Of a stretch of 53,174 nucleotides of DNA, positions 31,850 to 52,862 are shown one piece after another. A program made the position numbers and the translations under genes. The stretch is from Prorocentrum cordatum (Eukaryota): contig CAUYUJ010000335.1 in the NCBI GenBank assembly GCA_963575745.1, positions 62,001 to 115,174 on the forward strand. The letters run 5' to 3'. The first letter of the stretch is position 1. Every line of letters begins with the position of its first letter. The notes beneath the pieces were generated by a model that did not search any database, was not told where the DNA came from, and worked only from the letters and a program-made list of their open reading frames with translations.

Positions 31850-35362
<3,513 letters not shown>

Positions 35363-35940: not shown

Positions 35941-35989
35941 GAAGGCGCCGAGTGAACTAACCACATCGACGGAGGTCTGGGGTCTGGGA

Positions 35990-36134
35990 TTAGGTCGGGC
36001 ACGTCCCCCTACCGGCGGATTTGGGAAACATAATAAATACACAAAAAAAACGCAAAGATTATCAAACATAGTCGAAAAATCGTCCCCTGACTATTTGTGA
36101 ACATTCCTCCAGTAGAGGGACGTGCCCGACTTAA
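35990..36134. mobile_element. hAT-like MITE, copy 5
   Basis: 23-bp TIR TTAGGTCGGGCACGTCCCCCTAC / GTAGAGGGACGTGCCCGACTTAA (2 mismatches); perfect 8-bp TSD GTCTGGGA. Confidence 0.9.
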
Positions 36135-37162
36135 GTCTGGGAGTGGGGCGTTTGCTCGGATGACTGGCTGGGCCCCCGAAGGGCGGCCGCGGGCGAAGCC
36201 CGTGCCTTCGCTAGAAGTGGCTGGCGGGGGCCGCGAGCTTACTCCTCAGGGAGCCTGCGACTGAGAGGCATCAGGGAGGTCTGGTCTGGGAGGAGTCGGC
36301 GGCGAGCGAGGAGGGGAAGTGAGGAGAAGGCCCTCTCAGGAGGCGGCGGGACTTCTCAGAAGCGCTCGCGCCTTCTGACAAGCATTTTTTTAATGTATTC
36401 GGGGAAGGATTCGAAGACTTCTCAGAACGCCGGGGGGCTTCCGAACGTTCTGAAAAGGCCTTTCTTCTCGTTTCGCTCCCTCGCTCGCCGCCGAAGGAGG
36501 TCAGAGTCACCCGCTGGAGGTCGGCAACTTTGAAGGGTGCAGTTTGCAACCCGCGCCCTGGGGGGCGGGCGACGACCTCGACATTGCTCTCAGCCGCGCC
36601 CCGACGAGGACTCCTCAAACCTTTGGCGCAACATGGTGCCCCCAGGCCAGGCGGAGCACACCGCAAAAAAAACGAGGGGGCCACAACCCCCCCAGGCGAG
36701 CCATTTTGGACCCCCCCGACTAGCCATGAAAGGGCGGCCTATTCCCCAGATCCCCCTGGAACCCTCCAAAACAGCTCCAATCAGACCCCCAAAAATCTAG
36801 GCGAACGAACAATGACTTAAACATAAAAGCTCGGAGGTCCGCGCGGATTTCTCGAATCGGCGCTTGAGACCCCTGGCGCCGGCTCCGCGCGCCAAGGAGC
36901 TCCGCGCGCCAAGGAATGGGGGTCCAACGCCGATCCGAGAAACCCACACGGACCTCAGAGTTGTTATGTTTATGTCAGTGTTCGTTCCCCCGAAAATCAG
37001 ACCACCATTTTTTGCTGTGGAATCCAGAAAACTACACCCCAGCTGTTTCGTTCCCACGTCGCGGCCCCAGCGCTTCAGACGTTTTCCCCTGGGATAGGTT
37101 TCAGCCCTAGGCCAATCATTGATGGTCCTGCGAACCAGGGGCCCCTGTTGCTGAAACTAGGA

Positions 37163-37322
37163 ACACGTCGGGCATGCCTTCCTGCAGGCGGATTGGGGAA
37201 GACAACTTGGAAAATATCCGAAACATATTCAAACAAGCCCAAAACATCGAATATACATCCCGGGGCTGCTTTTTTAAACTGTGTTTGTATATTCCTCCTG
37301 TAGAAGGACGCGCCAAACTTAA
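37163..37322. mobile_element. hAT-like MITE, copy 6; further tandem fragments at 37616-38365
   Basis: Same family; TSD aactagga/acctagga. Confidence 0.72.
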
Positions 37323-38407
37323 ACCTAGGACGGCAATCGCCGATGCCGAAGGTCCGCCCGCCTTGCGAGAACGGCGCCCGTGCACCGTGCCATGTTGTGG
37401 ACTCCGATCAGGTCCCGCTCCAGCCGCGGTACGGCGCACACTCTGAAGGCCGAGCACCTATGCAGGATACCATTGCTTGATCGAAGATTGGCAACGCCTC
37501 GGGGGACGCCCACGCGGCAAGGCGCACGCCTCGCCACCAGTCGGGCGGCCGCTCCCTGTCGGCCTCGTGCGCATGTTCCTTCGCGAGATGATCCAAAGTA
37601 GTCCTCGATAGGCCATTAAGTCGGGCCTGTCCCCCGACAGGCGGATTCTGGAGGAAGAATGAAAATTTGTCACAGCCCCAAGAAAATACACAAACGCCAA
37701 ACATTGCAACAACCCAAACCCCCTACTATCTTAGGGCGGAATCCGCCTGTCCCCCGACAGGCTGATTCTGGAAGAAGAATGAAAAATTGCAACACAAAAA
37801 AACGCCAAAAATTGCAACAACCAGAAGTTCCCCTACCATTTTAAAAACCATGTTTGATTATTCCACCTGTAGAGAAACACGCCCGACTCAAAGAAAGCAT
37901 GCTTTCGTAGTCAGCGGCCGAAAGACGGTCGGACAGCAGCCGAGCAGCAGCGGCCAAAACTGTAACAACAAAAAGTTTCCCTACTATGGTAAAAAAACTA
38001 TGTTTGACTATTCCCCTGTGGAGGGACAGGCCCGACAGGCGGATTTTGGAGGAAGAATGGAAAATTGCGACAGCCAAACAAATAGTACACAAACGCCGGA
38101 CATTGCAACAACAAAAAGTCCCCCTACCATTATATATATATAATATATATATATATTATATATATATATATAAATGTTTGACTATTCCACCTGTAGAGAA
38201 ACAGGCCAGACTCAAAGAAAGCATGCTTTCGTAGTCAGCGGCCGAAAGACGGTCGGACAGCAGCCGGGGCGCGGCAGGGCACGACGGGCCGAGGGCGCGA
38301 TGGCGCGAGGCGGCCAAAGGGGCTGGGATTAGGTCGGGCCTGTCCCCCTACTGGCGGGCTTCGGAAAAATTATATACATACAAATTGTGTGTTATATATA
38401 TACATAT

Positions 38408-38537
38408 ATCGCTCGCGCGCCTTCTTTTCCAGGCGCGCTGCACCAGCAGCGTCTTGCAGCGAGGCGCGGCTAGGCAGACACTTTGGGTCAAGCCTCGGAG
38501 CCGCTGCCGAGCGAGGCCGGCCTCGCAGCCCTCACCA
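38408..38537 (-). repeat. Split direct repeat B2 (130 bp)
   Basis: Matches B1 (38732-38861) with 3 mismatches. Confidence 0.97.
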
Positions 38538-38654: not shown

Positions 38655-38861
38655 CCTGAAAAGGCTGTGGAATCACCGGCGCCGCGATAGGCCCGCTCCT
38701 ACCTCCTACCGTCGGGGCGGTGCTGACTCCAATCGCTCGCACGCCTTCTTTTCCAGGCGCGCTGCACCAGCAGTGTCTTGCAGCGAGGCGCGGCTAGGCA
38801 GACACTTTGGGTCAAGCCTCGGAGCCGCTGCCGAGCGAGGCCGGCCTCGCAGCCCGCACCA
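38655..38861 (-). repeat. Internal B1-A2 junction (copy of the circle junction)
   Basis: A2 (38655-38733) abuts B1 (38732-38861) and shares the dinucleotide AT. Confidence 0.95.
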
Positions 38862-38954: not shown

Positions 38955-39947
38955 TCACCACGTGGACCACCACCTGCAGAGGCACCTAACAATCTCCGCA
39001 CTTTCGGCGGGTAACTGCAGCAGCACCAATGCGGCCGTGCTATCCTCAATGTAGATGCGCGCTGTTCGTGGGTTCTGCCATCGGCCTCGTACGATCGTCG
39101 CGTCCACGCTCTGGACCTTTGTGAAGTGCCACGAAACCCCCCCTCTCCGTAGGGAGTACGGCTGGAACCCTACGTGCTCAAGGCGGGTGAACTTCAGGAG
39201 AGCTTGGAATGCCCTCGAAAAGGCGCCCCCCCTCTGGCGGACGAGGGGGTCGTCGTCAGAAAGGTCGCACATGGCCCGCTGCAGCAAGGTCAGAATGACG
39301 CGGTCCACGAAGTGCACCGCCTCCCGGGCCCTCTTTCTCCCGGCAGTCTTGGTCGACTCCAATGCTATGAAGACCGTGTTGGACTCAGGGAAGAGCCGGA
39401 CATGGCGTTTCTCGAGCGACAAAAGCTCGGCAGTCCGAAGAAATGCAGTAAATCCAACCAGAAGCCCTGCGGCCAACCTCAAATCCCCCGCCTGGGCCGC
39501 AGCGGAGGCCAGAGCAGCCACAATATGCTTCGGGAACGGCGTGGCTCTAGTGGGCACGACTGTCGAATTCCAATTGTTGTAGAACAGCCAACTCGTGTTG
39601 AGGTGGTGCTTGCATTGTGGGAAGAAGCGCTGCAGGCCGCTCAGGAGGTGGCCGCAGAAGCCGATGGGCTCACCTTCCTGCCAACACTCGTTGATGAACT
39701 CAGACACAATGTGATCGAGTTCCGACAACGACGTGGGCAGGGCGAGGGACCTGGCTTGCAAGAAGAAGAAGAAGAAGGCGTTAACAGCTCGGCGGTATAC
39801 CTGGAACGCGCGCGGAGCGATGCCGACATAGCGCAGGTGCCGGCGAACCGGCCCACCAGGATTACGGGCGCGACGGCCCTGCTGACGAAGCACCGGCATT
39901 CCTCGAGGCAAAGTCGCTAAAGTTCCACGCAAAAACCGTCCAGGCAT
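38955..39947 (-). CDS. Tyrosine recombinase of the DIRS-like element
   Basis: Catalytic motifs FLRTAEL (R), KT (K), YSLRRGG (Y in place of H in HxxR), GRW (W) and RIYI (Y). ATG at 39947 or 39899; overlaps the 3' end of pol. Confidence 0.93.
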   Translation of the reverse strand: MPGRFLRGTLATLPRGMPVLRQQGRRARNPGGPVRRHLRYVGIAPRAFQVYRRAVNAFFFFFLQARSLALPTSLSELDHIVSEFINECWQEGEPIGFCGHLLSGLQRFFPQCKHHLNTSWLFYNNWNSTVVPTRATPFPKHIVAALASAAAQAGDLRLAAGLLVGFTAFLRTAELLSLEKRHVRLFPESNTVFIALESTKTAGRKRAREAVHFVDRVILTLLQRAMCDLSDDDPLVRQRGGAFSRAFQALLKFTRLEHVGFQPYSLRRGGVSWHFTKVQSVDATIVRGRWQNPRTARIYIEDSTAALVLLQLPAESAEIVRCLCRWWSTW

Positions 39948-42900
39948 AAAAAAGGCAATTATCGCATGCAAGTGATGCCGCCATGTGTTTGCGGCACACG
40001 CGGTTCAGCCGCTTAGAAGAAGAACGGCCTTTGGTGAGCACACCCGTCACGACCAGCGAGTCCAGGATGTGCAGGTAGCGCCGGGAGTGGTACATGATTG
40101 AAATGGCACGCCGCCTCAACCAGGTCCCCGCCGCGTGCGCCTCAAGGGTGTTGATGTGCTGCTCGTGCTGCCATCGCCATGACAGCACGGTCTTCCACTC
40201 CCACTCAAGAGCGGGGCACGGCACCCTAGCAGGGGGCGAATGGAAAGGATCGTCGACGATCAGCCTCACGTCAGTGCCCCGGTGGTCGCACTTGCGGAGC
40301 ATGAGCTTCAGATGTTCGATCTCCTGGCCCGGGGCCATGGTAGCCTCGAGCTCACGCACGGACGCGACCACGCGCTCCGAGACGCCCTTTTCGACGAACA
40401 TCTTCCCTGCTCGGGCGAGCCGGGCACGCAGCGCCTCCTCCCGCCTCGCAGGGTCCACCTCCCGGGGTGGCACCGCGGGTCGCGACAGCGCGCCGGCGAC
40501 GACCTCCGCGCAACTCTGGCACAGCGCGCCCGGGTACTCGTAGAAGTGGCACGGGTCCTTAGGCGGCACCGTGGGGCAGGAGCAGGGCCCGTCGCGATGG
40601 AGCATGGCATGGAGCTCGCGGCAGTTGTGAGCGAAGCAGGTGGCCCTCCGCGCGCCGCCGAAGCAACAGTAGGAGAGCTCAGAGTAAAATGCCCCCTCCT
40701 TCTCCTCTAGCTCCTTGGCCTGCGCGAAGTCCCAGAGCCAGCTGTCGCACGGGTTCTCGATGCACCAATGCTTCCCCTGCCCGTGGCGCTCCAAGGCACA
40801 AGCGAGGGCCTTCTTGCCCATCGCGTCGGATCGCCGCACCTCGAACGCGAGAGTGCGCGGGAGCCCAGGGATCCCAATGATGCGCCTGGCGTTCCGCACC
40901 CGGTCTGGCCCAGGAGCCCTCGACAAGAAGCGCCACTCGGGAGCAAAATGCTCCCAGGCAAGCGCCGTCTCGGCCTGCTCGGTGGTCAAAATCTCCTTGC
41001 CCTCCTGGGAAAAGAAATCGCGGCCCATAGCGTCGTCGAAGGGCCTCTGCACAGGAATGCCCCACTGCGCCACTGCCTGCGTCAGCGGGGCACGAGGGCA
41101 AGAGAACCGCTCTGCGAAACACGGGCAGCGTCCGCACTTCCCGCAGTTCTCTCGGTGGTCAGCCGCGCTGCGGGGGTCGCCGATCTGGGCGCCGCAAGGG
41201 GCCCGTATAGGGCTCTCGCCGGACTGGCGGTAGCTGGGCTGGCAAGCCGAACCCGCGGTAACGAACGGCCGGAACGACATCGCCACCGCAACTCCGCCGC
41301 CTGTGAGCGACGCGTCCGAGCACGAGACAATCCCATCGAGCGTGGCGCGTATGTTGGTGAAGGCGAGCGGGGCGAAGATGGTGAAGGACAGGACCGCGTC
41401 GAACGCGTCGTCCTTCGGCACCGCCGCCCCAGCCTCCAGCAACTTGATCTGCCAGAACACCTCCTGCAGCACCGCGTAGAGCGGCCCCCGAAACACCGGC
41501 GCGAAGCAAGCCTTCCCAGCCCAGTGCCGGAGCGCTCGCGCGCTCCACCGAGGCTGGGCCAGCAGCGCCAGGCCCAGCCAGACCAAGTCGGCCCCCTTCG
41601 AGGGCTGGAGCCCGAAGGTCCCGCGGGAGCTGTCCAGAAAGCCCCCTTGAAGGGATGCCGCCGTCGCCCCGATCAAGGATTTTCCCGTGTTCAGCGGGAG
41701 GCCGAGCTCGGAGCACACGTTGACGAAACGGGCGTGCTCCTCTGTCTCCCCCCCCATCTGGGCCTCGGCGAGAGCCCGGTCGACAACCCGGAGTCGGTCG
41801 TACGAGTCGAGGTAAAGGATGGACAAGTCGTCCTGCGGGGGTAGGCCCCTGCCCTTCTGCACCTCGGTGGCGGGGGAGACCCGCGCGAGCCCGAACGCAA
41901 GACGTCGGACAACCGACTGCATGATGGCGACGGCACTGTTCCAACCCATGGGCACGACGCACAAGGCGGGGCGCACCCACTCTTTCTCTGGCAGGCCCAT
42001 AGCGCTGCCAGAGTCGGGCAGAGTGAACAGGTTGAAGCAGCTCTCGAAGTCCTCGGAGTCGATGAGAACCTCTTCTCCCTCCTCCAAATGAAGGAGGGTG
42101 ACCTGCCCGACGTGCGGCAACTTGTCGTCGTCCCCCGTGATGCGGGTCAGGTAGTCGTTGATGGGGCAAAAGATGCTGATAAAGCGGGGGAGTTCCTGTC
42201 GCACTCCGTCCTTGTACTTGATCTTCTCGACGCCGCTGGCCCCGTTGTACACAGGCTGGCCGTCGACGCCGCGGAACACATCCTCCTCCCTCACTGGTTT
42301 CATCATGCCCCTTTGGAATGCCGCGGCCACCAAGTCAGCCCAGGCCCCCTGAGAAGCACGGACGTAACTCTTCCTAGCTGCCGCGGGCCAAAAGGCCCGG
42401 TCCAGGAGGTTCGAGCTGGGATCCACGACCTTCTCAAGCACCTCGCCCTCGAGGAACTTGGTAACGGACTGGATTGCCGCGGACCCCACTGCCGGCCATG
42501 CTGGGACGACCCTCCTTGGCGTGAGCGCCTCCATCTTGACAACCAGGCCCGAGGCCCCGTAGTCCACTGGAAGCGTCGTGAGCTTCTTCCTGAGGACCTT
42601 CAGCGACGGTGCCTGCCCAGCGGCGTCGGGCTGGCTGGACACGAATGCGACGACAGCCATCGCAACATGCCGGACCAGCCTGAGTTGAGGCTGCGACAGC
42701 CTCAGTGCCGGGCCCTTCCGAGGTGGCTCAGCGCCCGCTCCGAGATAATGGAAGTTGAGGGCGGACAAAATACAGCAGACCCACTGGCGGAGGCCGCCGC
42801 CCCATCGCCCCAGGGATGCCTCCTCGAACCCATGGCCCAAGACCTTCTCGGCAGAGAGCTCCCGGACGGCCTCGACCGCAATCGGCAGGATGTCTTGGGT

Positions 42901-43656
42901 GGCTCCGCGAGACCCTCGGGCAGAGGGTGGTGCAGCGCGCCCTAAAGAACGCGGCAGGTCGCCCAAGGGAGTCGCGAGCTCGTCCCAGTGCGCATCCAGC
43001 CAGATGAAGGCATCGAAGAGCCCTGGCCGAGAGGCGAGGGCCACCTCGAGGTCTGCCCGCCAGCTCTCCCTGGTCACGTGGCCCTTGCGCGGCGGCGGCG
43101 AAAGTCTCGGGAGCGAGCCCTCCCGGTAAATATCAAGCATCGGGCGTTCTGGCGACTCCAGGCCCCCACGCGGCTCTGAGCCCGACGTAGGCTCGAAGGA
43201 AGCCGCTGGCTCCTCTGGCGGCGCCCGCGCGTCGCAGAGTCGCACGACGCGCCGGCGTCCACCCAGCGAGGGGCTTCCCGCAGGCTTCAAAACGGCAGCC
43301 TCGCGCCCCCTGCACGCTCCGCCGCTGGGGGACCGCGCATCGCGGGATCCAACCCGTGAGTGGGGCGGTCTGGCGACTGCTGTGGACGGGGGGCGGCGCC
43401 GCGGCGCCTCCCGAGGGGCAGCGGTCAGCCGCCGTTGGGAGGCTTCCCTTTGCCGCCCTTTCCGCTCTTGGTCTTGCCGCCACCCTTCTTCCCCTTCTGG
43501 GAGGCTGCGTTCTCGTCGTGGCCCCGGCGCCACGGCTGCGCGCCCACGATCTCCTGGTTGGTCCGCGCCTCCCTCGCGACGGCGACGCCCTCGTCGCGCT
43601 CCAGGAGGGGAGCCCCTTCCTCGGGCATGAGCTCGAGGAGCTGCGCGCGCGTCCAA
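39862..43656 (-). CDS. Pol: reverse transcriptase plus RNase H interrupted by a DNMT-like domain (first ATG at 43140)
   Basis: RT motifs SEDFESCF, PMGW, YLDSYD and GLPLNTGKS. RNase H acidic residues SDAS, HINTLE, LDSLV and NFSDFASR. The insert contains ERFSC, HFAPEW, CIENP and CCFGGARRAT. Confidence 0.88.
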   Translation of the reverse strand: MDARAAPRAHARGRGSPPGARRGRRRREGGADQPGDRGRAAVAPGPRRERSLPEGEEGWRQDQERKGRQREASQRRLTAAPREAPRRRPPSTAVARPPHSRVGSRDARSPSGGACRGREAAVLKPAGSPSLGGRRRVVRLCDARAPPEEPAASFEPTSGSEPRGGLESPERPMLDIYREGSLPRLSPPPRKGHVTRESWRADLEVALASRPGLFDAFIWLDAHWDELATPLGDLPRSLGRAAPPSARGSRGATQDILPIAVEAVRELSAEKVLGHGFEEASLGRWGGGLRQWVCCILSALNFHYLGAGAEPPRKGPALRLSQPQLRLVRHVAMAVVAFVSSQPDAAGQAPSLKVLRKKLTTLPVDYGASGLVVKMEALTPRRVVPAWPAVGSAAIQSVTKFLEGEVLEKVVDPSSNLLDRAFWPAAARKSYVRASQGAWADLVAAAFQRGMMKPVREEDVFRGVDGQPVYNGASGVEKIKYKDGVRQELPRFISIFCPINDYLTRITGDDDKLPHVGQVTLLHLEEGEEVLIDSEDFESCFNLFTLPDSGSAMGLPEKEWVRPALCVVPMGWNSAVAIMQSVVRRLAFGLARVSPATEVQKGRGLPPQDDLSILYLDSYDRLRVVDRALAEAQMGGETEEHARFVNVCSELGLPLNTGKSLIGATAASLQGGFLDSSRGTFGLQPSKGADLVWLGLALLAQPRWSARALRHWAGKACFAPVFRGPLYAVLQEVFWQIKLLEAGAAVPKDDAFDAVLSFTIFAPLAFTNIRATLDGIVSCSDASLTGGGVAVAMSFRPFVTAGSACQPSYRQSGESPIRAPCGAQIGDPRSAADHRENCGKCGRCPCFAERFSCPRAPLTQAVAQWGIPVQRPFDDAMGRDFFSQEGKEILTTEQAETALAWEHFAPEWRFLSRAPGPDRVRNARRIIGIPGLPRTLAFEVRRSDAMGKKALACALERHGQGKHWCIENPCDSWLWDFAQAKELEEKEGAFYSELSYCCFGGARRATCFAHNCRELHAMLHRDGPCSCPTVPPKDPCHFYEYPGALCQSCAEVVAGALSRPAVPPREVDPARREEALRARLARAGKMFVEKGVSERVVASVRELEATMAPGQEIEHLKLMLRKCDHRGTDVRLIVDDPFHSPPARVPCPALEWEWKTVLSWRWQHEQHINTLEAHAAGTWLRRRAISIMYHSRRYLHILDSLVVTGVLTKGRSSSKRLNRVCRKHMAASLACDNCLFYAWTVFAWNFSDFASRNAGASSAGPSRP

Positions 43657-45069
43657 GCGCCGTCGTGCAGCGCCTTGTCGATCGCCTTGATCCTCTGGGC
43701 CACAACGTCGGCAGCCTCCTCGGGCCTCTGCGTCGCCAGGAGGTCCAGGATGAGGGACAGCGTCCGCAACTCCCTCCTGTCGCGAAGCGCCATGCGCGTG
43801 GCCAGGGTCGGAACCATCACCGTCAAAAAGTACGATGTCGCTGCCGGAGGCGTCTGATTCAGATCGCCCAGGCTGCCCAGCTGGGCATGCACGGCCCCCC
43901 CCTCCCTGCTGACGCCGGCTGCCATCTTGAGCAGGAGCCGCGCGGCCAGCCGTCCTGGATGACGCTGGGAATAGGACACCAACTGGAGCTGCTTGCTCCC
44001 GTTGGCGGAGGAGGGGGCCTCGCGAAAACCCGGCCTCGACCCTGAGCGTGAACGACGCCTCCGCCTCGAACGCGAGCGCGACTCCGAAGAGGAGAACGCC
44101 GCCAACGGGCCAGCACCGTAGGGGCCCCGGTCGCCGCCTCGACGGCGACGACGTTCGCGGCCCCCTCGGCTGCGGGAGCGGTCGCGGTCGCGGTCGCGAG
44201 CGTGCCGGGGGGTAGGGGAACGGGCGCGCCGACCCTCGGGCGCATCCACAAGCGGCGGCGCCGACGCACCTCCAGCTTGGTCAGCGTCCCCACCTCCAGC
44301 AGAGCGGCCCCCGGCAGCACGACCACCGCGCCTCGGGGACCGGGCAGTCCCCCCAAACAGGCCAGGCCTGCTAGGGCCACCTCGGCCCCTTCCGAGGGTG
44401 ACCCGAGCGTTCGCGCCTCCTCCCGCGAGGCTCATCAGCAAGGTCACGACGTAGATTCGCAAGCTGGTCTGCGACAGGAGCTGCCGCAGCCGCACCGCGG
44501 GAGGGAGATCCCTCTGGCTGCCGCTGCTGCCGCGGCTGCTCGACAAGCTCTCCGTCGAAGAACTCGCCGCGGTCTCCGCCTGCGGGGACTCCCCCAGGCG
44601 GGTAAGCCTCCCGGCGCCCCCCATCAAGGTTGCCGAGGTACTCCTCCACACGCTCGGCGGCAACACCCCTACCAGCCCAACCGATCGCACCCGTGGCCAG
44701 CGCCGCCCTGGGGACCGCCCTGACACGGGCGAAATGCAGAGCGTAATCGGCACCAGCCTTGACGCTCTGGCAGGTGGCCGCCTCACCTCGGCAAAGGTGG
44801 TACCAGGCTGGGCTGGGCGGCTTGTCCGCCGACTCCCGCACGTACCAGTCGTAGTACTCGTCGCTCGCGGCAATGTACACGGCCTCGAGCCATCGAACCC
44901 TCGCCGAGGCGGTAGCCGTGCTAGTCACCGCGAGCAGCATCGTGCCCTGCTCGTCGCCCGCGTCGTCCGAGCACTGGACCTCCACGATCTGGCCGGAGCG
45001 GAGCTCGAAGTGATCGAAAAAGTCTGGGTCGGCCACGGCGTCGAACCATGGCCCGACTGGGGGCGGCAT
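43425..45069 (-). pseudogene. Gag-like ORF1, apparently split by one frameshift near 44400-44445
   Basis: Protein-like N-terminal half in ORF 45114-44371 (ATG at 45069). Protein-like C-terminal half (RS-rich, then a helical region and a KG-rich tail) in ORF 44873-43425. It is the first ORF after A1. Confidence 0.7.
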
Positions 45070-45275: not shown

Positions 45276-45354
45276 CCTGAAAAGGCTGTGGAATCACTGG
45301 CGCCGCGATAGGCCCGCTCCTACCTCCTACCGTCGGGGCGGTGCTGACTCCAAT
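45276..45354 (-). repeat. Split direct repeat A1 (79 bp), 5' end of the element
   Basis: Matches A2 (38655-38733) with 1 mismatch. Confidence 0.97.
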
Positions 45355-45472
45355 ATATATATATATATATATATCTATATATAATATATATGTATATAGA
45401 TGTGACATTTGTGTGTATATATATAAGTAAAAACCACTCGACTCAAGCATAATACCAAAAACATATATATAT

Positions 45473-45503
<31 letters not shown>

Positions 45504-45696
45504 GTAAATAGATCTGTGAACATATAACACGCGGACGACCCTTCGCCGGCCCGCTGCCCTTCACCAGGGGGGGGCAGCCGGCTGCCCGCGCTCCGGGGAG
45601 CCAGCCGCCTGCCCGCCCCCTCCGGCGCACGGCGCGCAAGTAGACTGCCCGTGCGCCTGCCTGCCTAACGCGCCGCTCGTCCTCTTGAATTCTCCG

Positions 45697-46783
45697 TTCC
45701 TCCTCCTCCTCCTCCTCCTCCTCCTCCTCCGCCTCTCCTCCTCGGCCTGCATCGTGCTCCTGCTCTCCTTCCCGTTCCTGCTCCTCCTCCTCCGCCTCCT
45801 CCCTCCTCCTCTTCCTTGAGTCCTCCCCGCCTCCTCCTCCCTCCTCTCCTCCTCCTCCTCCTCCTCCGCCTACTCCTTCCTCCTTCTTCCTCCTCCCTCA
45901 TCCTCCTCCTCCTCCTCCTCCTCATCCGCCTCGTCCTCCCTCTCCTCTCCTCGTCCTCCCTCCTCCTCCTCCGCCTCCTTGTCCTCCTCCTCCTCCTCCT
46001 CCTCCTCCCCCCTCTCCTCCCCCCCACCCGTCCTCCTCCTCCTCATCCTCCTCGCCCCTCCTCCTACTGTTCCTGCCCTCCTCTCCTCCTCCTCCGCTCC
46101 TCCTTCCCCTCGTCCTCCGTTTCCGCCTTCCTTTCCTCTCCCTCCTCCCTCCTCCTCCTCCTCCTCGCCGTCCGCTCCTCCTCCTCCTCCTCCTCCTCCT
46201 CCTTCCTCCTCCTCCTCCTCCCCTCCTCCCTCCTCCTCTCCTCCTCCTCCCCCTGCTACTCCTGCTCCTGCCCTGCCTCCTGCTCCTCCTCCTCGCCTCC
46301 TCTTCTTTCCTCCTCCTCCTCCTCCTCCTCCTCCTCCCTCCTCCTCATTCCTTATTCATCCTTCGTCCTTCGTCGTTTCCTCCTTCCTCCTCCCTTCTTC
46401 CTCCTTTCCTCCTCCTCCTCCTCCTCCTCCTCCTCCTCCTCGTCCTCCTCCTCCGCCTCCTCCTCCTCCTCCTCCTACTCCACCTCATCCGTTCTCCTCC
46501 CTCCGCCCTGCTGTTCCTCCTCCCCCTCGTCATCCAACAGATCCTCCTCTATCTACTCCTCCTCTTAATCTTATTAGTATTCGTCGTAGTAGTAAGATTA
46601 CTATTAGTAGTACTGTTACCAGTATTATCATCAACATTCGTGTTACCATTAATCGTAGCATTACTCGTCGTATTATTGTGATTATTACTACGATTAGTAT
46701 TACTAACAGTCTTATTGGTATGACTATCCGTAATAGTAACAATTTTACTATTAGTCGTAATAGTAGTAGTAGTAGTAGTAGTA

Positions 46784-46830
<47 letters not shown>
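45697..46830. repeat. (CCT)n tract followed by degenerate (TAG/TAT)n and pure (CGT)n
   Basis: Direct reading of the sequence. Confidence 0.95.
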
Positions 46831-46831
<1 letters not shown>

Positions 46832-46851
46832 CGTAGCCATTTTGGCTCAAG
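46830..46851 (+). other. Exact full-length dinoflagellate spliced-leader exon (DinoSL) at the LINE 5' end
   Basis: TCCGTAGCCATTTTGGCTCAAG matches the consensus DCCGTAGCCATTTTGGCTCAAG at 22/22. It is not followed by a GT donor. Confidence 0.97.
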
Positions 46852-47008
46852 TCCGTAGCGTTTCGCTCAGGACAGAGTCTCTTGGCGTGGGGGAGCGACG
46901 GCCCCCGACAGCTCAGGTCGCCCCCGCGGCGGCACATTTCCATTCACTGTACTGCGGTATCAGCCCGCAACTTTTGCGTACCTACACCACGGCGGGCACG
47001 GCCCGCGG

Positions 47009-48193
47009 ATGTCTCCCGATGGTGCACGTGTGCCTTTGGTCTCGGGTCGCGGACAGCAGCGGCGTGCCTGGGCCCAGCCGTGGAACTGCAAGTCGTGCTG
47101 GAACAATCAGGGAGAGAGCTGGTGGAACCGTGCCGATCGACTTCATTGCAGCAAGTGCAACCTGCATAAGTCGGTCTGCTACGGTGGCCCTCGTTCCTTG
47201 CCCACAGTCCCCGCCGTGCATGCGCAGCAGCGTGCAGGCTCGGGCAGCAGTGGCAAGGTCGAGCAGCAGCTCAAGCAATGCCAGGCAGAGTTGGAGAAGC
47301 TCCGTACGCAGCTCGCTCGAGGGCCCCCGCCATCACCTCCAGACCCACGGGATGCAATGGAGGTGGACGAGGGGGGGGCCGACGGCGATCTCAAGCAGCA
47401 GCTGGCGGAGCTCAACTCGCAGATCGAAGCTATCAAGGACGTTCAATGTAAGGAGGTGCAGCAGGCTTGTCAGCAGATGCGCGAGCGCCAGGCGCGCTTG
47501 CGGCAGCGTGTCTCTGCGGCCAAGCCTCTGGACACACGCCTCAAGGAGCTCTCTTTCACGCATCAGCGGCTTTGTAAGAAGGCGGCGAGGCAAGAAGAGA
47601 ACATTCGTGAGCTGGAGGAGAAGGTCAGGGTCGCCCAGGAGGCGGTGGAGCGTGCCAACAAGGAGCTCAGCGCCACAAAGAGCGAGATGGTCGAGATTGA
47701 GCAGCAGAGGCGCGAGTTGGTCGTCGCCTGCCCTCAGCCACCGCAACCCGAGCAAGGGCAGGCGCAGTCGCTGCAGCAAGTCATCGGCGGGCTCCACGAC
47801 GTCTCCGTGGGCCAGCTGGGTGAGCTGCTGCAGGGCTTCGGAGGCTCGGTGCAGTCGGCGCAGAAGCTGTATGATGCGGTCCAGGAGGTGCGTGAGGCGG
47901 AGCGCGTGTACCGCGAGAAGAGGGAGCAGGAGGCAGCAGCAGCTCGCTCAGCAGCCGAGGCGGCTGAAGCGGAGCGCTCCTCGCCGGCGGCAGCGAGTGC
48001 GCCTGCGCCTGCGGCCAGCCCAGCGGCCAGCTGGATCCCAGACTTCTCGGCGGCCGATGCGGACACGCTGCGTGAGTTCCTGGAGACCTGCAATGTTCAA
48101 GTGCCCGAGGATGAGGACGATCTTCGGGAAGCGGCCAAGCGTGCAGGTGAGCAGCTCGACAGCTTTGCCAAGAAAGCCAGAACGAGGACGTAG
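47009..48193 (+). CDS. LINE ORF1p (RanBP2-like C4 zinc finger plus long coiled coil), 394 aa
   Basis: WNCKSC..WWN....HCSKC followed by E/Q/K/L-rich heptads; lies directly upstream of ORF2. Confidence 0.85.
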   Translation: MSPDGARVPLVSGRGQQRRAWAQPWNCKSCWNNQGESWWNRADRLHCSKCNLHKSVCYGGPRSLPTVPAVHAQQRAGSGSSGKVEQQLKQCQAELEKLRTQLARGPPPSPPDPRDAMEVDEGGADGDLKQQLAELNSQIEAIKDVQCKEVQQACQQMRERQARLRQRVSAAKPLDTRLKELSFTHQRLCKKAARQEENIRELEEKVRVAQEAVERANKELSATKSEMVEIEQQRRELVVACPQPPQPEQGQAQSLQQVIGGLHDVSVGQLGELLQGFGGSVQSAQKLYDAVQEVREAERVYREKREQEAAAARSAAEAAEAERSSPAAASAPAPAASPAASWIPDFSAADADTLREFLETCNVQVPEDEDDLREAAKRAGEQLDSFAKKARTRT

Positions 48194-48239
48194 GCTTGCC
48201 ATTCCTTTGGTGATCAAGCTGTTTCTCATTTTTTGTGCC

Positions 48240-51200
48240 ATGGTTAGAGTTGTTACTGCTAACACTACGAGCCACGGGCCAATGGTCCGCATGCTGGAGT
48301 CCGACATCACGTCGCTGGCATTTGATAAGGAGTTGACGGTGTTCTGTATTCAGGAGCACCATCTCAGTGACAAGCTGGCCGACCACCAATCGAGGGTGGG
48401 GGCAGCAGGGTACCACGGGGTCTGGGCCAAGGCGCTGGACACGGACAACGGAGGGACGACGGGTGGGGTGGCTGTTCTATGTCCCAAGCGGGTGCAGATC
48501 ACGGCGCCCCCACGTTGCGAGGATGGGCTGCTGGTCCCAGGCAGAGCAGTAGCAGGCCATGTTCACAGTGCTGTCCGAGGCGGCTTCGTTGTGGTATCCG
48601 TCTATTTGTACGTGGACGACCAGATGGGGGAGAGGAATGTCGCGATCCTGGTGGATGTGGCGGCCTACCTCTTCCGTCTCAACGAGATGGGGATCGAGTG
48701 GGTGGTTGGAGGTGACTTTCAGATGGAGCCTGACAAGTTGATGTCGTGGGCCGCCGCATTCGGGGGCGTGGTGTCCGCCACAGCGGATCCTACATGCGTG
48801 CAGGCGGTGCCAGGCTCCACGATCGACTTCTTCGTGATAAGTGCTAACTTAGCGATCAGAACCACCCCAGCTGTTGTGCTCGAGGATGTGTGTCTCGCTC
48901 CCCACAAACCGGTTTCCTTCGGCATTCGAGGGGCTGATGTTAAGCTGTGGTGCAGAGTTGCATGCCAGCCCAAGAGGATGCCAGTAGTTGCTAAGGCAGG
49001 ATGTGCGCGTTTCCCCAGGCGGTGGGCGCGTTTTCGTCAGCAGGTAGCCCAGGCCCGAGATGAAGAAGATCTCAGTGTCAGGTGGGACGAGTTTCTTACG
49101 AAAGTTGAGCGTGAGCTTCTGGACCGACACGATATTGTAGGGCCGCAACGTTCTTTCTACGAGGGCTACGCTGGCAAGCATGATGTGACATGGAAGGAGC
49201 TCAGTTTCGTGCCAAAGAAGCGTGCGGTCCAGCTGCAGCCTGTTCAGGCAGCGTGGGCCACGGCGGCCAGGTGGGCCCGCCACCTGCGATCGGTCAGCCA
49301 GGCCCTGCACACGTTCGCGCCGAGGCTGGAGGTGGACGACGGCGACCAGACAAGGCGTTTCCGACGTATGGCCAAGGTGCTGGTGGATGCCGACAGGTTT
49401 TGCGACCGTATCACCAAGGTGGAGTGGGTGCACAAGGAGCTGGACCCCCTCAGTAGTGCTCTTTTTAAGGCTGGCCTGTCGGCCCTGGCCGACCCTTTCT
49501 TTCAGGATTTGCGTGACCGCATCTTGGAGCGAGCATCGCTTCAGGAGTCGGCCCATCTTGCCAGCAAGTCAGAGGACTGGCAACGATGGGTTCGAGAGAG
49601 CTTCTCAGGAGGAGCCCGCCAGGCGCACAGGTACTCTAGAGCTCGAGCTGTCCAGGAGGTCATTGGAGCCACCCAGAGAGCCCAGCCCTTTGAGCTTTCT
49701 GATGAGGTTGTCTCGGACTGGGGGCTTATTTGGGCTACTCATGGGTGTACTAGGCCCGAGATCCCTGGGGACGCCGATTCTTGGGAAGAACTCCCAGTGC
49801 TTTCGGTAGCTGACCTGAGAGCTGTCATTTTGAAGTTCCCTGTGTCCACGGCAGTGGGGTGTTGTAAAATACATCCTCGCTCGCTTCTGTACCTTTCGGA
49901 CCAGGCCCTTGAGGCCTTCGCATCATTGCTGCATCAATGCGAACGCTGTCTCTGTTGGCCAAAAGACAGGATAGTGAGCAGGCTATTCCGTCTTGCCAAG
50001 CCAGACGGGGGGCATCGTTTGATCGCGCTGCTAGACTCTTTCATCAGAGTATGGGCGCGAGCCCGCAGGCCTATCAGCGAGGCCTGGGAGCGTGCCAATA
50101 GGACGGAGGAGTTCTGGGGTAGCGGGAAGGGGAGGAGCGCGAGCGATTCGGCCTTCGATTTGAACCTTTCCGCTGAAGTTGCCAAAGCTCAGGGCCTGCA
50201 CTGGATCAGCGTGCTCTTAGACATGGCCAAATGTTATGAAATGATCAAGCTTTCGGCTCTTTTTGACGTTTATCGGAGAGTGGGTTTCCCCCTTCGATTA
50301 GGTTGGATGTTGATTCAAAGCTATGTGGCGCCCCGTAGGATCGACGCGTGCGGGAGCTTGAGCGACAGCTATGTTTCTTTTCAGGGCATTTTAGCAGGCT
50401 GTGCTCACGCCTGCGCCAACATGCTTGCAGTGCTGCTGGACCCTGTCAAAAAGATTGTCGCTAGGTATCCGTCTATTAAGCCGAGAGCCCTCATGGATGA
50501 TATATCCCTTCAATGGTGTGGCGAGACCGCCAAAGGAGGGGAGCTGGTCTTTGCTGCGACGCGAGAGCTGTGCCACCTTCTAGCCCCGATTGGTCTCCTT
50601 TTGCAGCCAAACAAGTCTGGGTTCCTCGCGAGTACGACAGCGGCAGAAAAAGAAGTTCGGTTGTCGGCTCGCATGATAGGGTTTCACAGCAAGGCTCATC
50701 TTCGCAACTTGGGCCATGATTTGCACGGTAGGCGTGTAATTCGCAAAGTTGAAAAAGCCAGGGTCGCCAAGCTCCAGGGGCGTCGGGCCAAACTTCGGGT
50801 CCTGAAGAAAGCCGCGGGGCCTAAGGTGGCCATGCTCTGGCGGACTGGGCTCATGCCCTGTGGGGCCCACGGGGCCGCGGTGTCTGGGGTCTCGGATCAG
50901 GTCCTCAGAAGCCTGCGTGCAGCGGCGGCCGAGCTTGCAGGAGCTAGAGGCCGCATGCACGTCACGGCCTTTCTAAGTACGCATCGGGACGAGAACTATG
51001 ACCCATTAGTCGATGCTACAGTGCCTCTTGTTTTTCGATACTGCTGCTGGATCTGGGACCGTCGTGCTAGTGATGTAGATCTTTGGCATGCGTGGAACGC
51101 GGCGGCCTCACGGCTAGCCAACAGACCGCTCTGGAGAGATGTTCGAGGGCCCGTGGGAGCCGTCTTTTTGAGCCTGTTGCGCGTGGGATGGGCCCTTGTG

Positions 51201-52862
51201 GGACCGACCCATATTCGGACCGACCAGGGAGTTGCGTTGTCGCTTTGCCACGTTTCGCCCTGGGATTTAAAACGCCAGCTCATCGAGGGTATTAACAGAG
51301 CGCAGATGATTCAGCTCGTGTCGGCCATCCCCGAAGCTTCTGGCGAGGAGATCGTTTGGGGTCGTGCGCTGCGGGTCGCGGTGAACTCCGCGAGGGAACC
51401 TAAGAGGCGCGCGACCTTGAAGGCCTTGCTAGCAGGGGGGCTCTGGCCGCCAGCTCGGAAGTTTAGTCATGGATTGGCCGATTCGAACCTTTGTCAGTTT
51501 TGCAAGCAGCAAATAGGCACGTTCGGCCATCACTGGTATGAATGCGAGGAGCTCTGGCGCCAGGGTGATGCCCCAGAGGCAGGGCCCGCATTGCCAGAGG
51601 AAAGTTTCAAGCGAAGGCAGCTGCTCAAGGACTCGGCCCGAGGAATTCCCCCCGACTTCGATTCGGTTGAGTTGGTTTACGGTTTGCCGTTTCAGCCTGT
51701 GGTTTTGGAGCCAGTCCCGAGCGTGCTGCCTGTTTTGTCTTGGGGGGCCACCCACCTTCCTTGGGGAAAACGGGTCTACACCGACGGCTCTGGCCACGCC
51801 AACGGAGTCCCCGAGATGGCCCGCTGCGGCTGGGCGGTAGTCGAGATGTCGGCCCGTGGATGGCCGATCAGGGCCCTGTATGGAGGCCTCGCGGGACGGT
51901 GCCAGACGGTGCCGCGAGCCGAACGACAGGCCCTCTTGGAAGCTTTGAAGGTGGCCCCCCCTGGTGCTGAATTGGTCTCGGACCACCTCTCGGCTGTGAC
52001 CGAGGGCAACAGCTGGGATCCAGCCCTGGCGACGGGAGCGTTCAAGCACGCGTCAGTCTGGAGACGAATTCTTAAAATCGTCGGAGCGAAGGAACGACCT
52101 TCCTTCCGTTGGACCCCCGCCCATGGAGATCTGGACGAGATTTTGGAGGGTGAGTGGTCGTGTGATGGGGCTGGTGTTTCGCGTGAGTCCGATCTCCTTG
52201 GGAACGGGTGGGCGGACTTTTTCGCGAAGCTGGGGGCTGCTCAGATCCGAGCGGCCGAGAGTGCAGTCGAGGCAGTCAGAGTTGGCCTCAGCGAGGCCAA
52301 GCTGAATTTTGCTTTTATTTCGCGGGCGGCCCAATTCGTGGCCGCGTCTTCGGTCCCCGAGCCGAGGCCGCCTGCCAGGCCGAGAAACACCACGGCCCCT
52401 CCTCTGGCCCTGATGGCCCACGACCTCGAAATGATTCCGTCTGGAGGTGCGCGGTGCACATGGTGCCACAGTATCGCGAAGTCGGCAGGAGGCCGTGCCA
52501 GGCTTGAGCAGCCAAGCGCGGTCTGCAGGCCAACCGACTTGCACTTGTTTTTAGCCGCTGTCCGACATCACCGCCTCGGGGGCGTCCTCCCTAGGGCGCG
52601 AGGTGAGGCGGTGCGTCGAGCGTGGCAGGCCCTCGGCTTCGAGGGAGAGCAGGGAGAGGCTGTCGCCCCGCCGTCGGTCTTCCATTTCTTGCAGCACCAG
52701 GTCGCGGCTGTTGGCCGCTACCTGATCTGTCACCGTTGTGGGGCCCACGCGCTGATTGAGGCGCCGAGCTGGCGTGCCCTGCTTCAGGCCTGCACAGGAC
52801 GCATGTCCAAGGACCAGCGGTGGTTCCTGGACCGTGTCAGTGCAGGGCGCGAGCCCCGATAG
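48240..52862 (+). CDS. LINE ORF2p: AP endonuclease, reverse transcriptase, CCHC-type zinc finger and RNase H (1540 aa)
   Basis: APE: TAN, IQEHH, GGVA, SVY, GDFQ, TIDFF, PHKPV. RT: KPDGGHRLIAL, LLDMAKCYE, GILAGC, LMDD, RNLG. Zinc finger: CQFC..GTFGHHWYEC. RNase H: YTDGS, VPRAE, SD, WTPAH, GNGWADFFAK. Confidence 0.95.
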   Translation: MVRVVTANTTSHGPMVRMLESDITSLAFDKELTVFCIQEHHLSDKLADHQSRVGAAGYHGVWAKALDTDNGGTTGGVAVLCPKRVQITAPPRCEDGLLVPGRAVAGHVHSAVRGGFVVVSVYLYVDDQMGERNVAILVDVAAYLFRLNEMGIEWVVGGDFQMEPDKLMSWAAAFGGVVSATADPTCVQAVPGSTIDFFVISANLAIRTTPAVVLEDVCLAPHKPVSFGIRGADVKLWCRVACQPKRMPVVAKAGCARFPRRWARFRQQVAQARDEEDLSVRWDEFLTKVERELLDRHDIVGPQRSFYEGYAGKHDVTWKELSFVPKKRAVQLQPVQAAWATAARWARHLRSVSQALHTFAPRLEVDDGDQTRRFRRMAKVLVDADRFCDRITKVEWVHKELDPLSSALFKAGLSALADPFFQDLRDRILERASLQESAHLASKSEDWQRWVRESFSGGARQAHRYSRARAVQEVIGATQRAQPFELSDEVVSDWGLIWATHGCTRPEIPGDADSWEELPVLSVADLRAVILKFPVSTAVGCCKIHPRSLLYLSDQALEAFASLLHQCERCLCWPKDRIVSRLFRLAKPDGGHRLIALLDSFIRVWARARRPISEAWERANRTEEFWGSGKGRSASDSAFDLNLSAEVAKAQGLHWISVLLDMAKCYEMIKLSALFDVYRRVGFPLRLGWMLIQSYVAPRRIDACGSLSDSYVSFQGILAGCAHACANMLAVLLDPVKKIVARYPSIKPRALMDDISLQWCGETAKGGELVFAATRELCHLLAPIGLLLQPNKSGFLASTTAAEKEVRLSARMIGFHSKAHLRNLGHDLHGRRVIRKVEKARVAKLQGRRAKLRVLKKAAGPKVAMLWRTGLMPCGAHGAAVSGVSDQVLRSLRAAAAELAGARGRMHVTAFLSTHRDENYDPLVDATVPLVFRYCCWIWDRRASDVDLWHAWNAAASRLANRPLWRDVRGPVGAVFLSLLRVGWALVGPTHIRTDQGVALSLCHVSPWDLKRQLIEGINRAQMIQLVSAIPEASGEEIVWGRALRVAVNSAREPKRRATLKALLAGGLWPPARKFSHGLADSNLCQFCKQQIGTFGHHWYECEELWRQGDAPEAGPALPEESFKRRQLLKDSARGIPPDFDSVELVYGLPFQPVVLEPVPSVLPVLSWGATHLPWGKRVYTDGSGHANGVPEMARCGWAVVEMSARGWPIRALYGGLAGRCQTVPRAERQALLEALKVAPPGAELVSDHLSAVTEGNSWDPALATGAFKHASVWRRILKIVGAKERPSFRWTPAHGDLDEILEGEWSCDGAGVSRESDLLGNGWADFFAKLGAAQIRAAESAVEAVRVGLSEAKLNFAFISRAAQFVAASSVPEPRPPARPRNTTAPPLALMAHDLEMIPSGGARCTWCHSIAKSAGGRARLEQPSAVCRPTDLHLFLAAVRHHRLGGVLPRARGEAVRRAWQALGFEGEQGEAVAPPSVFHFLQHQVAAVGRYLICHRCGAHALIEAPSWRALLQACTGRMSKDQRWFLDRVSAGREPR

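Follow-up and report, generated by a model that had tools for sequence, protein, structure and literature searches.

Retrotransposons that carry a DNA methyltransferase (DNMT) domain of their own have been described for Symbiodiniaceae. These SymbioDIRS-Dnmt3 elements have the repeat order A - coding - B - A - B, and the accessible part of the article gives the order of their Pfam domains, with no mention there of a DNMT inside the fold of RNase H (de Mendoza et al., 2018; PMC5890265). Another methyltransferase, a Dam-like adenine methyltransferase domain, occurs in DIRS1/PAT-type elements (Goodwin and Poulter, 2004, as cited in the accessible part of PMC5890265; accessible part of bioRxiv 10.64898/2026.05.21.726589), and is described as structurally unrelated to cytosine DNMTs (PMC5890265). 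Retrotransposons with their own cytosine methyltransferase were a surprise in 2018, and the findings reported here bear on the coupling of such a domain to reverse transcription. The DNA under study is a stretch of 53,174 nt from Prorocentrum cordatum (contig CAUYUJ010000335.1, positions 62,001 to 115,174), hereafter called the window, which contains a single copy of a DIRS-like tyrosine recombinase (YR) retrotransposon on its minus strand. The anatomy of this element, the folds, the shared insertion site, the residue replacements and the conservation values were all computed in silico. The best explanation, to which we assign a probability of roughly 0.7, is that the RNase H of its Pol protein is interrupted between strands beta2 and beta3 by a module of about 355 aa with a DNMT fold, that this module is a diverged member of a clade-wide set, and that it is most likely non-catalytic. 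A DIRS element with a DNMT-type domain is already known; new here is a cryptic, degenerate form of the domain, together with its nested position in RNase H.

Pol residues are counted along the 1472-aa stop-to-stop frame at window positions 39862-44280 (-). An earlier inspection of the letters of this DNA, the sequence-only reading, had proposed a cytosine methyltransferase-like domain nested in RNase H, based on a series of short motifs. All of them were found in place, on the minus strand and in one open frame: SCSDASLTGGG (residues 986-996, window 41325-41293), FAERFSC (1055-1061, window 41118-41098), HFAPEW (1111-1116, window 40950-40933), CIENP (1173-1177), CCFGGARRAT (1205-1214), YPGALCQSCA (1249-1258, window 40536-40507), HINTLE (1375-1380, window 40158-40141), LDSLV (1406-1410) and NFSDFASR (1453-1460). 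In addition, ENCGKCGRC starts at residue 1044. The first RNase H motif had been estimated to lie about 380 aa from the remaining ones, and SCSDAS and HINTLE are indeed 386 aa apart. In insert-less relatives the DAS and HINxLE motifs are separated by 59-101 aa. The RNase H, usually a contiguous domain of about 130-150 aa, is thus not contiguous in the window Pol, where strands 2 and 3 are about 355 aa apart.

The interruption is no peculiarity of one sequence. Pol residues 960-1472 align without a break to seven proteins of other origin with 32-36% identity at 98% query coverage, and to many proteins with 32-40% identity. An exhaustive search with this region yielded 2307 proteins at E<=1e-3, including 55 at E<=1e-30; many of the hits match query positions 1-501 as a single stretch. 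The motifs are among the best-conserved columns of A1, a 48-row alignment of the window family over the same region. Because the region aligns as a whole in many proteins and the motif columns are conserved, the nested layout is a conserved trait of the family.

A structural model of Pol residues 960-1472 was generated by AlphaFold2 with A1 (mean predicted local distance difference test score, pLDDT, 85.2; predicted template modelling score, pTM, 0.70), and all evidence on folds presented here comes from predicted structures. Strands 1 and 2 of RNase H were found at model residues 21-31 and 35-44, and the C-terminal piece consists of strand 401-410, helix 417-434, strand 441-447 and helix 496-501. 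Superposition with RNase H1 covers model residues 24 to 509 including the N-terminal strands, and in the model the SDAS strand folds together with the C-terminal half of the domain. Asp989, Glu1380, Asp1407 and Asp1456 are located on or beside the elements 21-31, 417-434, 441-447 and 496-501. In A1, Asp989 is kept in 30 of 32 filled rows, and the other three residues are kept in nearly all rows. Split but complete, and equipped with four acidic residues, this RNase H is probably active, as judged from the model. In the RNase H topology, the beta2-beta3 hairpin is situated at the end of the sheet that points away from the active site, and because of this placement the hairpin may represent a permissive place for insertions. 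The sequence-only reading had expected a Rossmann-type methyltransferase looped out of RNase H, and the AlphaFold2 model, the Foldseek results described below and the RNase H1 superposition agree with that expectation.

The inserted module starts with a decayed HIT-type zinc finger, continues with a C5-methyltransferase-fold domain and ends in a linker of three helices. The central part (model residues 93-309, Pol 1053-1268) is predicted as a confident alpha/beta domain. A Foldseek search with the window model returned C5-methyltransferases only among the matches listed, including DNMT3A/B, DNMT2, DNMT1, MET1 and EhMeth, with a best E value of 1.1e-3, probabilities of 0.95-1.00 and about 190-200 aligned columns. 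According to the model, the core of the insert has the arrangement of class I C5-methyltransferases and would be a Rossmann-type domain most similar to the C5 DNA methyltransferases.

Two further types of inserts were found at the same site in related proteins. The first was recognized via P0013, another DIRS-like Pol of Prorocentrum, which has the flanks in common with the window Pol, but not the insert. In a homology search with P0013, 11 of 46 rows carry precomputed PF00145 annotations, and 9 of 12 scanned relatives pass the PF00145 cut-off with 26-49 bits. The six patterns DAS, FxGxGG, PC, ENV, GNS and HINxLE are all present in this order in 7 of 22 rows, and others show part of the set. 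Since true PF00145 domains lie between the DAS and the HINxLE motif, the known Dnmt3-type DIRS domain is, as read from the order of motifs, itself nested in RNase H, at the same site as the window module. The sequence-only reading had correctly pointed to published DIRS elements that carry a DNMT in Symbiodiniaceae (de Mendoza et al., 2018; accessible part of PMC5890265) and had left it open whether the nested arrangement was already reported. The arrangement turned out not to be special to the window element, as it is shared by PF00145-bearing Pols, and a literature search that included the accessible parts of PMC5890265 and bioRxiv 10.64898/2026.05.21.726589 retrieved no text describing a DNMT nested within RNase H.

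The second type is an abundant insert of about 320 aa, called the Pro-Pro-Cys family here, for which 302 proteins were found at E<=1e-3 (P0199 and 301 others). Many of these have Symbiodiniaceae gene-model names, and PF00145 is annotated in none of the 120 matches listed. Its motifs are F-D-F-V-E-x-C-G-G-x-G, E-P-P-C-T-T-F-S with an invariant Cys, L-E-Q-P-x-L-S-K-M-A-W and S-C-x-F-G-S-x-H-x-K. The family also has a Cys/His cluster (C-x-F-G-S-x-H-x-K, R-C-x-G-G-H-x-H), and the Cys, the Glu and the Gly-Gly-x-Gly are invariant. Comparison of the window-type with the Pro-Pro-Cys insert by hhalign gave a probability of 98.9% and an E value of 3e-17 over 223 columns, and at the level of profiles the two are clearly homologous. 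Modelled alone, the Pro-Pro-Cys domain reached a pLDDT of 89.2 and a pTM of 0.88, and Foldseek retrieved 35 matches at E<=1e-3 (best 9.9e-5), again with C5-methyltransferases only among the matches listed. The Pro-Pro-Cys family could represent an active minimal methyltransferase, as far as its residues tell.

Several observations weigh against a DNMT assignment of the window module. The sequence-only reading had made similarity to PF00145 a test of its proposal, and none was found: a Pfam scan of the window Pol (P0001) yielded 0 families at E<=1 and so no PF00145, and none of nine homologues matches PF00145. No match to a DNMT, RNase H or Dam family came from scans of the Pol, YR and gag proteins of the window and of the nine homologues, or from six proteins of the Pro-Pro-Cys family at E<=10. 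Searches against PDB sequences returned no DNMT among 16 rows at E<=10 for the A1 profile, and 0 rows at E<=10 for A2, the profile of the 'EPPCTTFS' (Pro-Pro-Cys) insert family. With hhalign, the core of the window-type insert is not significantly similar to PF00145-type inserts (motif I region E 0.56), the Pro-Pro-Cys inserts reach a probability of only 11% (E 2.6e-3) with motifs I and IV in register, and a merged profile of both cryptic families only finds motif I at E 0.046. On the structural side, the best Foldseek E value of the window model is just outside the 1e-3 line. The geometric margin over short-chain dehydrogenases (SDRs) is small, i.e., about 2 Z units for the window model and less than 1 Z unit for the Pro-Pro-Cys domain (DNMT3B 11.1 versus SDR 10.0). 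Furthermore, the equivalence of Trp1116, Glu1175 and Arg1211 with motifs IV, VI and VIII was derived from hhalign and secondary structure, and the residues of the window copy could in part reflect decay, as the copy may be dead (see below). Because the sequence tests against known DNMTs fail, the DNMT fold is assigned from predicted structure, from the order of motifs and from context, and the assignment is to be read as a prediction. Two additional results were discarded. An hhalign run of window-type versus PF00145-type inserts (probability 27%, E 6.6e-4) was out of motif register and driven by the C-terminal part. The nearest named clusters in the ESM Atlas have PF00145 in 35% (score 0.83) and 13% (score 0.82) of their members, which is a lead at most.

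The lack of any significant profile link to DNMTs would be in accord with a Rossmann domain of other origin, dehydrogenase-like or from another class I methyltransferase, in which the likeness to DNMT motifs is a coincidence. We regard such an origin as unlikely. Foldseek combines sequence with local structure states; two families were modelled independently, and in both cases the roughly 50 rows listed were C5-methyltransferases throughout. In a structure ranking over 48,161 chains, C5-methyltransferases occupied the first ten insert places with the window model and the first five with the Pro-Pro-Cys domain, although they make up a tiny share of the Rossmann-like chains. DNMT alignments extend over 180-200 residues, in contrast to about 150-165 for SDRs, and model strands 239-244 and 254-259 are joined by a short connection that would fit the methyltransferase hairpin. 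In the Pro-Pro-Cys family, E-x-x-G-G-x-G, Pro-Pro-Cys-x-x-Phe-Ser and a Glu at a strand end follow one another as in DNMTs, and true DNMTs are present at the same site in sister lineages.

The relationships of the elements were analyzed with a tree of the RT and RNase H flanks, leaving out the insert (47 rows, careful IQ-TREE search; P0210, which lacks the motifs, was excluded). A group with 100/100 support unites the window family and rows with degenerate inserts, and it is placed among PF00145-bearing lineages. The window family is sister to nine PF00145-type rows (85/62), and other PF00145-type rows fall outside. The Pro-Pro-Cys family (100/99) is found on the far side, together with insert-less Y-I-D-D elements. 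The tree of the flanks thus disagrees with the likeness of the inserts, in which the window insert is closest to the Pro-Pro-Cys type. Either repeated replacement by Dnmt3-type domains or swapping of modules between lineages could explain the conflict. Within the insert-bearing clade, the modules of P0137, P0151, P0041, P0065, P0074 and P0080 are partly or wholly deleted, while the linker R-G-T/S-D-V-R-L or the zinc finger is kept. Two rows of this clade with only the R-G-T-D-V-R-L linker motif look like secondary deletions. Both gain and loss of modules concentrate at the RNase H hairpin.

The Cys/His cluster noticed in the sequence-only reading is present, but as judged from family profiles it is a relic of a HIT-type zinc finger that has lost half of its ligands in the window copy. 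It corresponds to model residues of about 45-92, which have low model confidence. Relatives carry the cluster at this place, and the A1 profile weakly matches ZNHIT2 (1x4s, E 0.02) as well as BCD1 and HIT1 (E 0.02-0.1). Four of the eight conserved ligands are replaced in the window (Gly1010, Ile1025, Gly1034, Ser1038), in columns that contain Cys in 33-35 of 34-37 rows, and the eight-ligand HIT pattern is thus incomplete. The linker, with predicted helices at model residues 318-332, 339-354 and 361-371, is the only piece common to window-type and PF00145-type inserts (hhalign E 2.1e-5), and its motif is retained in the deletion derivatives P0137 and P0151.

Inspection of the catalytic motifs gave a mixed picture. 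The order I-IV-VI-VIII-X proposed in the sequence-only reading fits the strands and helices of the model, but the decisive residues of motifs I and IV are absent. In motif I, F-S-C-P-R-A-P of the window stands against a family consensus of F-S-G-P-x-A-P; the Phe and the preceding Glu are kept. The F-x-G-x-G loop for binding of S-adenosylmethionine (SAM) is lacking in the window: its first Gly is replaced by Cys1061, and the family has a Pro where the second Gly would be, in the register of the hhalign comparison with the G-G-x-G family. The Pro-Cys nucleophile of motif IV is also missing, as hhalign aligns Trp1116 with the Cys that is invariant in the EPPCTTFS family. Position 1116 is a Cys in 19 of 40 filled rows of A1, while the window subclade (of moderate support only, 79/76) has W, R, Y, R and R. 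In addition, Asn1152, His1176 and Trp1213 of the family are replaced in the window copy. The window copy keeps Phe1059 (29/39 rows of the family), Asp1082 (33/39), Pro1114 (40/40), Glu1175 (34/47) and Arg1211 (30/48). Glu1175 of C-I-E-N-P is at the end of model strand 212-218 and would correspond to motif VI, and Arg1211 is part of the motif VIII-like pattern G-G-x-R-x-(K)-W. From there, a Cys- and His-rich stretch of just about 30 aa leads to the C-terminal helix with the motif X-like part.

Self-methylation, as suggested in the sequence-only reading, is unlikely for the window copy because the G-x-G loop is absent and a Trp is found at the Cys position, and methyl transfer in general appears unlikely from its residues. 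It could be argued that the domain is nevertheless an active methyltransferase for DNA or RNA that methylates its own cDNA with non-canonical residues. The fold is nearest to C5-methyltransferases, the five residues mentioned above are kept in the family, about half of which retains the Cys, and for the SymbioDIRS-Dnmt3 domain de novo CG methylation is stated in the accessible part of PMC5890265. We consider this very improbable, because both the nucleophile and the SAM loop are altered, Asn1152, His1176 and Trp1213 are replaced as well, the short distance between the VIII-like and X-like parts leaves no room for a sizeable target-recognition domain, and PF00145 is not matched.

In spite of the lost nucleophile, the domain is well conserved. 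At least 88% of the rows of A1 have Pro1114, Arg1129, Gly1136, Arg1149, Pro1177, Ser1180, Trp1183, Gly1208 and Asn1219. Among Cys-less rows, pairs share on average 38.8% identity in the DNMT-like part, compared to 44.6% in the RT (9 pairs, with the near-identical pair P0009/P0015 dropped); the respective values for Cys-bearing rows are 43.9% and 42.4% (21 pairs). Linker and zinc-finger part reach 27% and 30% in the Cys-less rows and 27-33% overall. By these alignments, the DNMT-fold domain is conserved nearly as well as the RT also in Cys-less lineages and does not appear to be decaying. As the nucleophile has been lost and the domain is conserved to such an extent, it most likely works without methyl transfer.

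The opposite would be a functionless remnant, a former DNMT that decays neutrally in the window lineage in a hairpin that tolerates any insert. The window copy has indeed lost catalytic and zinc-binding residues, six relatives have deleted the module partly or wholly, and the differences between the window Pol and P0005, a 92%-identical Prorocentrum copy, are evenly spread over the domains, a comparison that carries no information on selection on active elements. In addition, in comparison to P0005 the RT of the window copy has a 12-aa in-frame deletion after LPDS (residue 758; window about 42010-42020, -). The deleted stretch (W-x-x-Y-F-x-x-x-K-V-V-P region) is present in P0005 and the wider family, and because these 12 aa inside the RT are missing, the window copy may be non-autonomous or dead. 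Yet a functionless remnant is quite unlikely for the lineage: in the Cys-less subclade, with about 45% identity in the RT, the domain has retained its 38.8%, compared to 27% for the linker and 30% for the zinc finger, the nine residues listed above are kept, and a confident model needs a coherent alignment signal.

A diverged DNMT-fold module that is retained without methyl transfer would therefore be the preferred reading. It would belong to a set of modules that is found at the same site throughout the dinoflagellate DIRS-like clade and that includes genuine PF00145 (Dnmt3-type) domains. In the window copy and its nearest lineages, the nucleophilic Cys and the SAM-loop glycines have been replaced, while Cys-bearing relatives and the Pro-Pro-Cys family may still methylate. 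We infer that the window module is non-catalytic and that it might serve as a nucleic acid- or protein-binding surface beside RNase H on the replication intermediate, either cDNA or hybrid, in a manner comparable to DNMT3L. A wider scenario is speculative, but conceivable: a DNMT-fold module in the RNase H hairpin might be ancestral and general for the dinoflagellate DIRS-like clade, and seemingly 'DNMT-less' elements might carry a Pfam-invisible copy of it. The Pro-Pro-Cys form would then be an unrecognised class of minimal, possibly active C5-methyltransferase, and the Cys-less form a DNMT3L-like non-catalytic partner or a decoy, which recruits or blocks methyltransferases on new cDNA.

The features of the element are compiled in Table 1. 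The order A - ORFs - B - A - B on the minus strand, revealed by comparison of the repeats within the window, represents the split direct repeats of DIRS-type elements.

Table 1. Features of the DIRS-like element in the window (ORF, open reading frame)
Feature	Window position	Strand	Remarks
Terminal repeat A, first copy (5' end)	45276..45354	-	79 nt, 99% identical to 38655-38733
ORF1, gag-like	43425..44924	-	Stop-to-stop open frame of 499 aa; start codon not fixed
Pol	39862..43140	-	Met381 of the frame to stop, 1092 aa; frame open from 44280
Reverse transcriptase core	41401..42360	-	Residues 641-960; homology to RT of DNMT-bearing Pol P0180
RNase H, N-terminal piece	41269..41346	-	beta1 and beta2, predicted catalytic Asp989 (SCSDAS)
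HIT-type zinc finger relic (putative)	41125..41268	-	Residues 1005-1052; family profile matches
C5-methyltransferase-fold domain (predicted)	40477..41124	-	Residues 1053-1268; without sizeable target-recognition domain; Trp1116 at catalytic-Cys position, Cys1061 at SAM-loop Gly
Helical linker to RNase H	40222..40476	-	Residues 1269-1353; motif G-x-E-x-x-H-L...R-G-T-D-V-R-L
RNase H, C-terminal piece	39886..40221	-	beta3, helix A (Glu1380), beta4 (Asp1407), C-terminal helix (Asp1456)
Tyrosine recombinase ORF	38955..39947	-	From first Met; overlaps end of Pol; 349-aa open frame spans 38955-40004
Repeat B, first copy	38732..38861	-	130 nt, 98% identical to 38408-38537
Repeat A, second copy	38655..38733	-	99% identical to 45276-45354
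Repeat B, second copy (3' end)	38408..38537	-	98% identical to 38732-38861

The gag-like ORF1 product has no Pfam match. A tblastn comparison (window 43964-43497, E 5.6e-10) aligned its C-terminal part with the N-terminal part of the DIRS-like P0013. Homologues of Pol are 1110-1120 aa long, in keeping with the start and length given here. Among named proteins, the closest are Prorocentrum cordatum entries titled 'unnamed protein product', with 98% and 92% identity, and one of these is identical to the window Pol over residues 381-1433. The RT region is homologous to the RT part of P0180, a DNMT-bearing DIRS-like Pol (E 2e-35), and a weak RVT_1 match below the cut-off was obtained only for the homologues P0006 and P0009 (E 0.0022 and 0.016). 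The accessible part of PMC5890265 likewise states that the RTs of SymbioDIRS-type elements fit Pfam poorly. The YR protein (P0002) has no significant Pfam match of its own and a search against PDB sequences found nothing meaningful, but phmmer links it to P0181 (E 6e-36) and to P0186, P0191 and P0190 (E 1.5e-18 to 1.3e-15), which have precomputed PF00589 annotations. By this homology, the third frame is recognized as a tyrosine recombinase in place of a DDE integrase.

At window 35113-35328, 38120-38204, 45351-45513 and 45675-46601 there are simple-sequence stretches: an extended (ATG)n run, runs rich in AT dinucleotides immediately beyond either end of the DIRS-like element, and, separating it from an element that resembles a long interspersed nuclear element (LINE), a low-complexity tract rich in purines and in GC. 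Five to six copies of a repeat measuring about 50-66 nt, which share the core GTCCCCC(G/T)AC(A/C)GGCGGATT, lie downstream of the 3' repeats (window 35980-38384, families D4 and D6). The LINE-like element is a 2025-aa open frame that adjoins the DIRS-like element (window 46785-52862, +) and has an RVT_1 match just below the cut-off (E 3.2e-6). By eye, an endonuclease-like GGDFQMEP before and an RNase H-like YTDGSG after the RT give it a LINE-type look, and no DNMT motif was seen in this frame.

Taken together, the same RNase H site holds three types of modules, the true Dnmt3-type, the Pfam-invisible Pro-Pro-Cys type and the Cys-less type. Therefore, the number and diversity of DNMT-like domains in dinoflagellate transposons are probably underestimated, and elements taken as DNMT-less ancestors may not be so. 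A DNMT-fold domain that is looped out of RNase H is no bead on a string, but would be fixed beside the enzyme that processes the RNA/DNA hybrid.

Among the known systems, SymbioDIRS-Dnmt3 is the most similar, and as far as the accessible part of PMC5890265 describes it, the window element shares with it the A - coding - B - A - B repeats, the separate tyrosine recombinase ORF, a DNMT fold inside Pol and an RT that is barely seen by Pfam. It differs in that the window domain lacks a PF00145 match, the Cys nucleophile, the G-x-G loop and nearly all of a target-recognition domain, and is preceded by a (relic) HIT zinc finger. In relation to the Dnmt3-type insert, the core of the window module cannot be aligned, in contrast to the linker.

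The second system for comparison is DNMT3L, a catalytically inactive paralogue of DNMT3A/B, which acts as a binding or regulatory partner. Its structure (2pv0) is among the listed structural matches of the window model. Both have kept the DNMT fold although catalytic and SAM-binding motifs were lost, and a fold that outlasts its nucleophile suggests a non-catalytic role. Unlike the window module, DNMT3L is a free host protein and not a part of Pol, and a partner of the module is hypothetical.

The Dam-bearing elements resemble the window element in having a methyltransferase-type accessory domain in the Pol of a YR retrotransposon. The Dam-like domain follows RNase H rather than sitting inside it, and no Pfam Dam match was found in the window Pol. 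A fold of the RNase H type that is split by whole inserted domains is known from the RuvC domain of Cas9 and Cas12, which, in contrast to the window RNase H, belongs to another branch of the RNase H-like superfamily and has other insertion points and another biology. To our knowledge, and judging from the literature search, no retroelement RNase H has been known to hold a nested enzyme-fold domain, and the element described here offers a clear case of a domain nested in the RNase H of a retroelement.

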